Assembly: GCF_057098645.1 (NCBI RefSeq) | Contig: NZ_CM169472.1 | Strand: one strand, 5' to 3' | DNA: 64,000 nt | In this document: positions 40,801 through 43,058 of the stretch, one piece after another | Position numbering within the stretch: position 1 is the first letter of the stretch | Layout of the letters: every line of letters begins with the position of its first letter | Made by a program: the position numbers

Positions 40801-43058
40801 TCGTCGGTCAGTGGTTGATGGTGCTGGCGCTTTCAGCCGTTACCGGTGGGGCGATAGGCCTGTTGTTCGAAAACGTGTTGATGGTGCTGCTCAAGCCCGT
40901 TCTGCCTGCTGCACTACCGCCTGCCAGTCTCTGGCCGTGGCTGTGGGCGCTTGGCACCATGACAGTCATCTCGCTGCTGGTGGGGCTACGACCGTACCGC
41001 TTGTTGCTGGCAACGCAGCCTTTACGCGTATTACGTAATGATGTGGTAGCGAACGTCTGGCCGCTGAAGTTTTATCTGCCGATTGTCAGTGTGGTGGTTG
41101 TGCTGCTGCTTGCCGGATTAATGGGCGGCAGTATGCTGCTCTGGGCGGTGCTGGCGGGCGCGGTAGTACTGGCTTTGCTGTGCGGTGTGCTGGGCTGGAT
41201 GCTGCTGAATGTACTTCGCCGCATGACGCTGAAATCGCTGCCTCTGCGCCTGGCGGTTAGCCGCCTGTTACGTCAGCCGTGGTCAACGTTAAGCCAGCTT
41301 TCAGCTTTTTCGCTCTCCTTTATGCTGCTGGCGCTGCTGCTGGTGTTGCGTGGCGATCTGCTAGACCGCTGGCAACAACAGCTACCGCCAGAAAGCCCGA
41401 ACTACTTTTTAATCAACATCGCCACAGAACAGGTTACGCCGCTAAAAGCGTTCCTCGCGGAACATCAGATAGTCTCGGAATCGTTTTATCCGGTGGTGCG
41501 AGCGCGGCTGACGGCGATTAACGGCAAGCCGACAGAAGGCAATGAAGATGAGGCGCTCAACCGCGAACTCAATCTTACCTGGCAAAATACGCGGCCCGAT
41601 CATAATCCGATTGTCGCCGGTAACTGGCCGCCAAAAGCTGATGAAGTGTCGATGGAAGAGGGGCTGGCGAAACGCTTAAACGTTATCCTCGGCGATACCG
41701 TGACTTTTATGGGCGATACCCAGGAGTTCCGCGCTAAAGTGACCAGCCTGCGCAAAGTGGACTGGGAAAGTTTGCGGCCTAATTTCTATTTTATTTTCCC
41801 GGAAGGGGCATTAGACGGGCAACCGCAGAGCTGGCTTACCAGTTTCCGCTGGGAGAATGGCAACGGCATGTTGACGCAACTCAACCGCCAGTTCCCGACC
41901 ATTAGCCTGTTAGACATTGGCGCGATTTTAAAACAGGTCGGTCAGGTGCTGGAGCAGGTAAGTCGGGCGCTGGAGGTGATGGTAGTGCTGGTCACCGCCT
42001 GCGGTATGTTGCTGTTGCTGGCACAGGTGCAGGTGGGAATGCGTCAGCGTCATCAGGAGCTGGTGGTGTGGCGCACACTCGGTGCGGGGAAAAAACTACT
42101 GCGTACCACGTTGTGGTGTGAGTTCGCCATGCTTGGGTTTGTTTCCGGCCTGGTGGCCGCAATTGGTGCGGAAACGGCGCTGGCAGTGTTGCAGGCGAAA
42201 GTGTTTGATTTTCCGTGGGAGCCAGACTGGCGATTGTGGATTGTTCTGCCGTGCAGCGGTGCGCTGCTGCTGTCGCTTTTCGGCGGCTGGCTGGGTGCGC
42301 GACTGGTTAAGGGTAAGGCGCTGTTCAGGCAGTTTGCGGGGTGATGACAGGTGTTAGATTGCCTGATGCGCTACGCTTATCAGGCCTACGAAGAGCGTGC
42401 AATATATTGATTTTGCAAGATTGTGTAGGCCGGATAAGGCGTTTACGCCGCATCTGGCATGAACAGTGTGCATTTTGGCAATAAATCTGAAACCAACTGT
42501 CATGTCGGTTTTTTAAAGGCCGAAGGTGGTAAACCTTCGGCCTTAGCGACGTTTCCTCAGTTATTCAATAAACTGACGGATCAGTTCCAGCAGCGCGATT
42601 AGCGCCTTAAGAACGATGAGAACTTTATCGAGAAAAGTTTTCATCCGTTGCTCCCTTAAGGGAGAAAGACAATCACAGCTTACCCTTACGTTGCCTGTAA
42701 CTATGATTTTCTTCATGTGCTAGATGAGGACTGCCTCTCTCCAAATTAGAGCACCAGAATCAGCACCACCTGTATCCTGACCAGGACTTAAAAGTACTTT
42801 TCCGCACTGCGGTAATCCCTTGAGGCAGTATCACTACTAGCGTCGGGATTGTATCGCCAACATAGCTGTTTGAATATGTAGGCATCCTGACTTATAATTC
42901 ACTTGCTAGATGAGGACTGTTTCATTTCTGCCCGGAACCACCAAGTCTTGGGCGGAAAAAATAAAAAAACCGACTGTCATGTCGGTTTTTTTATATCTGT
43001 ATTCTGGTGCAACCATTCTGTTCTCACGACAATCGCCGTTTCAGAATACCGCCCATCA

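Follow-up and report, generated by a model that had tools for sequence, protein, structure and literature searches.

A probable chromosomal DinQ-like/AgrB-like type I toxin-antitoxin module between ybbP and mnmH, with a seed-target repeat and a second copy of its small RNA terminator

A 64,000-nucleotide stretch of contig NZ_CM169472.1 (RefSeq assembly GCF_057098645.1), referred to here as the window, contains the convergent genes ybbP (39930-42344, plus strand) and mnmH/ybbB (43056-44150, minus strand), separated by a 711-nt spacer. A sequence-only reading of this spacer had noted a small toxin open reading frame (ORF) together with two short repeats: a 16-mer and a hairpin followed by a T-run. 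Our analysis indicates that a 569-nt insert in this spacer very probably carries a chromosomal type I toxin-antitoxin module of the DinQ-like/AgrB-like kind, that the 16-mer repeat is the seed-target pair of an antitoxin small RNA (sRNA) and its toxin mRNA, and that the hairpin copy beyond the toxin gene is probably a relic. The family is a known one, to which this locus adds a few undescribed local details.

Membership in the family is supported by the toxin, the sRNA and their arrangement. The small hydrophobic toxin peptide reaches 40.9 bits with the NCBIfam model NF041472 (toxin_DinQ; cut-off 30) and is identical to DinQ at 15 of 19 positions, and the Rfam AgrB model RF02891 matches 42906-42994 over its full length (model positions 1-84) with 53.6 bits (gathering score 40, E 4.9e-8). 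The sRNA has a predicted folding energy of -33.9 kcal/mol (z -5.4 relative to shuffled sequences). It lies 5′ of the toxin gene, divergent from it and non-overlapping, and it begins with a stretch complementary to the toxin 5′ untranslated region (UTR) upstream of the ribosome-binding site, covering element 2 of the published dinQ leader model. Furthermore, about 520 nt (42480-43000) are collinear with the gor-dinQ-agrA region of E. coli K-12. The earlier proposal that a trans-encoded antisense RNA acts at a type I toxin locus is supported. Two other models were not passed at this locus: the peptide scores 24.5 bits with the DqlB model NF041473 (cut-off 35), and the OrzO-P model of Rfam gives only 19-24 bits (threshold 60).

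Over 721 nt that take in the whole spacer (42340-43060), the window is 100% identical to E. coli O145 RM9872. In that record, the Prokaryotic Genome Annotation Pipeline (PGAP) names 42561-42716 on the minus strand "damage-inducible type I toxin DinQ", a 51-aa product to which at least three loci are related. The inner ATG, which gives a 27-aa peptide, is aligned with the start codons of the family. The annotation should accordingly be corrected to 27 aa rather than 51, and the unannotated sRNA partner added. We found no CTG-N10-CAG motif in 42740-42910, while the same scan recovered the box of the K-12 dinQ control (15/20); because a LexA box is absent, the "damage-inducible" product name is unsupported at the ybbP-mnmH locus.

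Both repeats are genuine and have sharp edges, and the two are not arranged collinearly. Two perfect copies of the 16-mer TGCTAGATGAGGACTG are present on the plus strand, at 42718-42733 and 42904-42919, and the window holds no others; no further match was found there at two or fewer mismatches (shuffle expectation 0.01). A repeat finder lengthens this pair to 22 nt with 20 of 22 identical (42712-42733 and 42898-42919). The hairpin-plus-T-run pair, which the sequence-only reading had placed one base off, spans 25 nt at 42490-42514 (copy 1) and 42967-42991 (copy 2) and is identical at 24 of 25 positions, the sole difference being A or G at 42495/42972; a third copy was not found in the window, and the chance expectation for the pair is 0. 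Within the spacer the longest exact direct repeat is 19 nt (the 16-mer accounts for 16), compared with a mean of 8.2 and a maximum of 12 in 300 shuffles of the spacer. A chance origin of the repeats is ruled out by these spacer and whole-window tests.

The surroundings of the repeats have diverged, as had been remarked before: the 50-nt flanks of either repeat are no more similar than shuffled sequences under a lenient alignment (p 0.4-0.87). The order of the blocks also differs, being hairpin then seed on the left side and seed then hairpin on the sRNA side. Alignment of 42478-42740 with 42890-42995 recovers only the 25-nt block; the 22-nt block emerges separately, with no collinear segment joining the two. 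Because they are not collinear, the seed and terminator copies do not derive from one duplicated segment. The idea of a single ancient local duplication therefore has to be divided: such an origin fits the family for seed and target, and the earlier view of the seed was essentially right, while inclusion of the terminator in the same duplication is not supported. Nor do the hairpin copies flank the toxin ORF alone; they flank the whole module, toxin and sRNA together.

Of the two 16-mers, the one at 42904 forms the 5′ seed of the sRNA, and the one at 42718 corresponds, on the minus strand, to the target of this seed within the toxin 5′ UTR. In the RNAduplex prediction an unbroken run of 24 mRNA nucleotides (42719-42742) is paired, a single A being bulged out; the pairing reaches about 24 bp, beyond the 16-mer, because the C-to-T differences of the sRNA retain G-U pairs. 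The cognate duplex is predicted at -55.5 kcal/mol, compared with -35.9 to -46.6 kcal/mol for cross pairs between non-cognate partners. In a divergent allele class, represented by L014, L017 and L023 and carrying both hairpin copies, 42926 is C instead of T, so that G-C replaces one of the G-U pairs when the duplex is read in the bulged register.

Six other loci (K-12, three plasmids, Photorhabdus khanii and Serratia oryzae) each have a seed-target repeat of their own, 23-51 nt long and alignable with the window 16-mer. Seed and target are 186 nt apart here; at the six others the distance is 181-199 nt, except for 234 nt at the S. enterica dqlB locus. Over 20 aligned columns in the seven loci, 16 columns are variable and contain 39 non-consensus cells, of which 31 show the same change in both copies, four are wobble-compatible and four break pairing. 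At the level of sequence, this is strong evidence that seed and target have been kept complementary across the family, and an ancient duplication as their origin would fit the family as well. Beside the module's closest chromosomal relative, in P. khanii, lies a group II intron domain (RF02003, 103 bits; L011 599-737).

K-12 carries agrA and agrB in tandem, and a promoter-like TTACCC-17-TATGAT lies on the plus strand at 42680-42708, 9 nt upstream of the 42718 copy, which might therefore be regarded as the start of a second, AgrA-like sRNA. We consider this highly improbable. The promoter-like site scores 8/12, which is below the scan threshold, and its TATGAT is not conserved in the relatives; there is no terminator before that of the sRNA itself and no Rfam AgrB match at 42718; and the stretch is aligned with the dinQ 5′ UTR target in every relative. 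The sequence-only reading, which had taken this copy for leader rather than a second small RNA, is upheld. At the left end of the insert, a likeness of TTTTGGCAATAAATCTG to the sRNA body is visible by eye, but the left-flank alignment is not significant and we do not claim a truncated second sRNA.

All four elements of the published dinQ switch (PMC3567139, PMC5066626), in which duplexes 1:2, 2:3 and 3:4 control access to the Shine-Dalgarno sequence (SD), can be located in the leader: the 5′ lock ACUGCCUC (element 1), with the target region as its predicted partner; element 2, GGAGAGAGGCAGU, which falls within the target; the anti-SD CUUUCUCCC; and the SD GGGAG. The SD/anti-SD pair corresponds to the SD-sequestering hairpin (elements 3:4), and its position is conserved in the family alignment. 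By analogy with AgrB and dinQ, pairing with the sRNA would cover the element that otherwise frees the ribosome-binding site, so that the SD would stay locked in its local hairpin and the sRNA-mRNA duplex would be exposed to RNase III. Folding of the K-12 dinQ control reproduces the published switch, the probability that the SD is unpaired being 0.04-0.05 for the +1 form, 0.21-0.52 for the +44 form and, once the AgrB site is blocked, 0.02-0.05. For the window leader, the +1 form gives 0.01 in the full-length mRNA and 0.25 with the 3′ end cut at 42595, and the SD is closed when the target is blocked. Toxicity, its neutralization by the sRNA and cleavage of the duplex by RNase III have been shown for dinQ/agrB and DqlB/agrB only (PMC3567139, PMC12365149); the peptide of the ybbP-mnmH locus would by analogy be toxic, and its mRNA would be neutralized by the sRNA and cleaved by RNase III.

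From homology with the dinQ +1, transcription of the toxin gene would start near 42841, giving an mRNA with a 197-nt 5′ UTR and, like that of dinQ, a length of about 330 nt (approximately 42841 to 42512, minus strand). The predicted 5′ end GCUAGUAGUGAUACUGCCUC (42822-42841, minus strand) is a third, degenerate seed-like copy, which was absent from the sequence-only list. At 42869-42875, the -35 element of the sRNA (TTGAAT, plus strand) and the best toxin -35-like hexamer (TTCAAA, minus strand) share base pairs, and because of this the two divergent promoters overlap back-to-back. The toxin terminator hairpin is homologous to those of the K-12 and plasmid loci.

The AgrB-like sRNA may also act beyond its own toxin, as a trans-regulator of dinQ or other mRNAs. 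About 179 genomes and a metagenome contig whose toxin gene was lost through independent deletions still retain the sRNA intact, including its promoter and terminator, and the pairing computed for this sRNA with the canonical dinQ leader (-46.6 kcal/mol) is close to that of AgrA (-47.2 kcal/mol). On balance, we regard such a wider role as rather doubtful.

Hairpin copy 1 lies beyond the toxin gene, one base from the GC-rich toxin terminator and back-to-back with it. It was absent from all relatives examined, namely K-12 dinQ-agrAB, the three plasmid loci, Photorhabdus and Serratia. Copy 2, the terminator of the sRNA, is symmetric (A7-stem-T7) and terminator-like on both strands, and its stem is identical to the terminator stem of K-12 agrA/agrB. 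The loop of copy 1 is the lineage's own TGTCAT; copy 1 was therefore copied from the terminator of the window sRNA. The duplication of the hairpin would be a separate and later event than that of seed and target. Parsimony gives a perfect ancestral hairpin repeat, from which copy 1 appears to have evolved at a near-neutral rate while the sRNA terminator remained unchanged. Its predicted fold is -6.3 kcal/mol on the plus strand and -8.5 kcal/mol on the minus strand, against -17.2 kcal/mol for copy 2, its plus-strand stem is mismatched in both allele classes and its T-run is broken in one of them. Because of this divergence, the stem mismatches, the broken T-run and the weak fold, we read copy 1 as a probable leftover, without function, from the duplication or insertion event by which the locus was assembled.

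Copy 1 might alternatively be a working plus-strand intrinsic terminator that shields the toxin from ybbP read-through, as copy 2 would for mnmH. Its T-run is on the plus strand, it is located between ybbP and the toxin 3′ end where it abuts the toxin terminator, its counterpart is terminator-like in both directions, and it is retained in essentially every module-bearing genome (its left junction is present in 1324 genomes). On the other hand, the plus-strand stem contains an A-C mismatch and is weak, the terminator scan made no plus-strand call at copy 1, the divergent allele has another stem mismatch and an interrupted T-run (TTTGTT), and copy 1 has diverged by 12-16% compared with 0-1% in its functional neighbours. 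These features make an insulating role unlikely.

The terminator scan does call copy 1 terminator-like on the minus strand, and only UUUAAAAAA follows the GC-rich hairpin of the toxin gene. On this basis the toxin mRNA could extend into copy 1, which would then serve as a further terminator or a stabilizing hairpin at its 3′ end and whose loop AUGACA could form a second, kissing contact with the loop UGUCAU of the sRNA terminator. The two independent substitutions at 42495 (E. coli) and 42505 (divergent allele) leave G-U pairs in the minus-strand RNA and A-C mismatches in the plus-strand RNA. Two transitions favouring the same strand have, however, a chance of 1 in 4, the relatives end with the same GC-rich hairpin and UUUAA and have no second hairpin, and the rate of change is near-neutral. 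We regard this possibility as very doubtful and prefer to see copy 1 as a remnant.

Several observations weigh against the overall interpretation and temper our confidence in it. At 16 nt, the exactly complementary stretch is shorter than at any other locus of the family, the relatives having 23-51 nt. The -35 element of the toxin promoter is poor. With a 5′ end equivalent to +44, the probability that the SD of the window leader is unpaired is 0.07-0.16, and folding does not predict the open state robustly. That copy 1 is a relic is judged from one comparison of two allele classes, with three to four differences in 25 nt, and the G-U retention by both stem substitutions, even at its chance of 1 in 4, could hint at residual constraint. 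Finally, while the identity of the repeats, membership of the family, the covariation of seed and target and the allele states are shown by the sequences, we infer rather than observe the transcription start sites, the 3′ ends, the toxicity and the antitoxin activity, and the same applies to the regulatory mechanism.

Among 5426 complete E. coli genomes, the full module was found in 1314 (~24%), and five states of the ybbP-mnmH site were distinguished (Table 1). The site is a hotspot for accessory DNA. In the 108-nt deletion, the start codon, the SD and the greater part of the target are lost and the sRNA stays intact; this deletion is present in about 179 of the 1314 carriers (1314 minus 1135). 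A metagenome contig (L025) has an independent 69-nt deletion (42512-42580), which takes away the toxin terminator together with 20 nt at the 3′ end of the ORF; here too the sRNA is kept. In K-12, no toxin-module remnant was found beside the rhsD island at the ybbP-selU site. REP-type (repetitive extragenic palindromic) sequences occupy 42350-42465 between ybbP and the insert, with sub-threshold Rfam matches to naRNA4 and ES036; they are absent in L014, L017, L023 and L009 and expanded in L010.

Table 1. Features of the ybbP-mnmH insert and states of the site, with divergence between the two allele classes where determined
Feature	Positions	Strand	Description	Divergence
Insert (site state: module present)	42473-43041		569 nt relative to the empty ybbP-mnmH sites L009 and L010; module bounded by two hairpins
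Left flank of copy 1				21%
Hairpin copy 1	42490-42514	+	AAACCAAC-TGTCAT-GTCGGTTT and T-run; direct repeat of the sRNA terminator	12-16%
Predicted toxin mRNA terminator	42516-42544	-	GC-rich hairpin followed by UUUAA; 12-bp perfect inverted repeat, -20.7 kcal/mol	0%
Toxin ORF	42561-42644	-	27 aa, MKTFLDKVLIVLKALIALLELIRQFIE; translation from inner ATG
SD and anti-SD	42651-42664	-	GGGAG 42655->42651 and CUCCC 42664->42660; palindrome, paired in the minimum free energy structure
Leader				1%
sRNA target in toxin 5′ UTR	42718-42742	-	exact 16-mer 42718-42733, with wobble extension over element 2 (GGAGAGAGG)
Predicted toxin mRNA 5′ end	42822-42841	-	5′ lock at 42829->42822; predicted +1 fold
Candidate toxin promoter -10	42848-42853	-	TACAAT, aligned with family-conserved GTATAAT/GTATGAT
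Predicted sRNA promoter	42870-42898	+	TTGAAT-17-TATAAT, strong (10/12); sole promoter-like site called in 42300-43100
AgrB-like antitoxin sRNA	42905-42994	+	~90 nt; 5′ seed, central stem-loop, terminator
Hairpin copy 2 (sRNA intrinsic terminator)	42961-42994	+	14-bp perfect stem, -17.2 kcal/mol	0%
Site state: truly empty			L009, L010; junction GTGCA/CAGAAT; whole 569-nt insert lacking, hairpin included
Site state: insert with 108-nt deletion	42622-42729		L002, FUJ80154; between GATGAGAAC (in the ORF) and GATGAGGAC (in the 16-mer)
Site state: solo hairpin	L008 446-471		exact product of recombination between the 25-nt copies; both outer flanks of the insert present
Site state: rhsD island	L004 3831-11133		K-12 ybbP-selU

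The hairpin pair forms direct repeats that bound the module, and recombination between the two copies would account for the excision of the module in at least two genomes. The solo hairpin is found in 2 of the 5426 genomes, PapM-32-1 (L008) and PapRG-04-4, both from Gambian baboons, with flanks 99.5% identical to the window. The sharp repeat edges with dissimilar flanks, and the natural occurrence of the solo allele, would also fit the opposite order of events, in which the solo hairpin is ancestral and a toxin-sRNA unit integrated there, duplicating the hairpin in the manner of a target site. This order appears improbable. The hairpin stem is the AgrB terminator of the family, identical to that of K-12 agrA/agrB, and so arrived with the sRNA; the solo state is confined to two genomes whose flanks are nearly those of module-bearing strains; both copies are already present in the divergent allele class; and truly empty sites lack the hairpin together with the rest of the insert. 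Excision from an intact module is thus the preferred explanation. A mobile cassette was also considered and is ruled out by the single site per genome and by related loci without such flanking repeats.

The locus provides a natural allele series of one chromosomal type I module, from the intact form through two deletions that destroy the toxin and spare the sRNA to excision and to an empty or Rhs-island site. It is also a clean example of seed-target co-evolution across a family, and a convenient system in which to ask whether chromosomal type I modules are maintained or decaying. Its biological value is modest, and it opens no new question.

In summary, the most fitting class for the locus is that of a chromosomal dinQ-like paralogue accompanied by an AgrB-like antitoxin, an ordinary member of a known family. 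The closest well-studied system is dinQ-agrAB of E. coli K-12 (Weel-Sneve 2013, PMC3567139; Kristiansen 2016, PMC5066626). Both encode a 27-aa single-helix toxin with the core ALIALLELIR and, divergently and without overlap, an sRNA that begins with a stretch antisense to the 5′ UTR ahead of the ribosome-binding site. In each, the mRNA (about 330 nt, a predicted length at the present locus) has a 5′ lock and a hairpin that sequesters the SD, and the sRNA terminator stem is the same. While these sequence features place the locus with DinQ and AgrB, it is not dinQ proper: it lies between ybbP and mnmH rather than gor and arsR, and it has no LexA operator, unlike K-12 dinQ. It has one sRNA instead of tandem agrA and agrB, and its exact seed-target match spans 16 nt (about 24 bp once wobbles are counted) compared with 30/31 in K-12, where 31 nt at the AgrB 5′ end are antisense to the dinQ 5′ UTR (PMC3567139). 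The toxin begins with ATG rather than GTG, an extra copy of the sRNA terminator lies beyond the toxin 3′ end, and the locus is accessory (24% of genomes) whereas dinQ is near-universal.

The dinQ-like (dql) genes described on chromosomes and plasmids (PMC5066626), and the DqlB-agrB addiction module of plasmid pOXA-48 (PMC12365149), have the same layout and, at each locus, a matched seed-target repeat of their own. Chromosomal dql genes occurring alongside dinQ have been described (PMC5066626), and the present locus agrees with that description. It is distinct from DqlB, as its peptide falls under the DqlB cut-off and over that of DinQ, and it is chromosomal without plasmid context; the plasmid dql loci are without the flanking hairpin repeat found here. 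The literature searched contained no mention of a dinQ-like site at ybbP-mnmH, the 14 published Dql peptides (PMC5066626) and dqlA not having been compared. More distantly, zorO-orzO, tisB-istR-1 and shoB-ohsC also have a divergent sRNA 5′ of the toxin gene that pairs with a long structured 5′ UTR needing processing (T1TAdb, PMC8594479), but their toxin and sRNA sequences are unrelated to those of the window. In Enterobacter sp. BIGb0383 (L013 1162-1195), a DinQ-like toxin has no AgrB match upstream and a partial, sub-threshold OrzO-P match of 36.7 bits, which recalls the resemblance noted between the zor and dinQ 5′ UTRs (PMC11264685).

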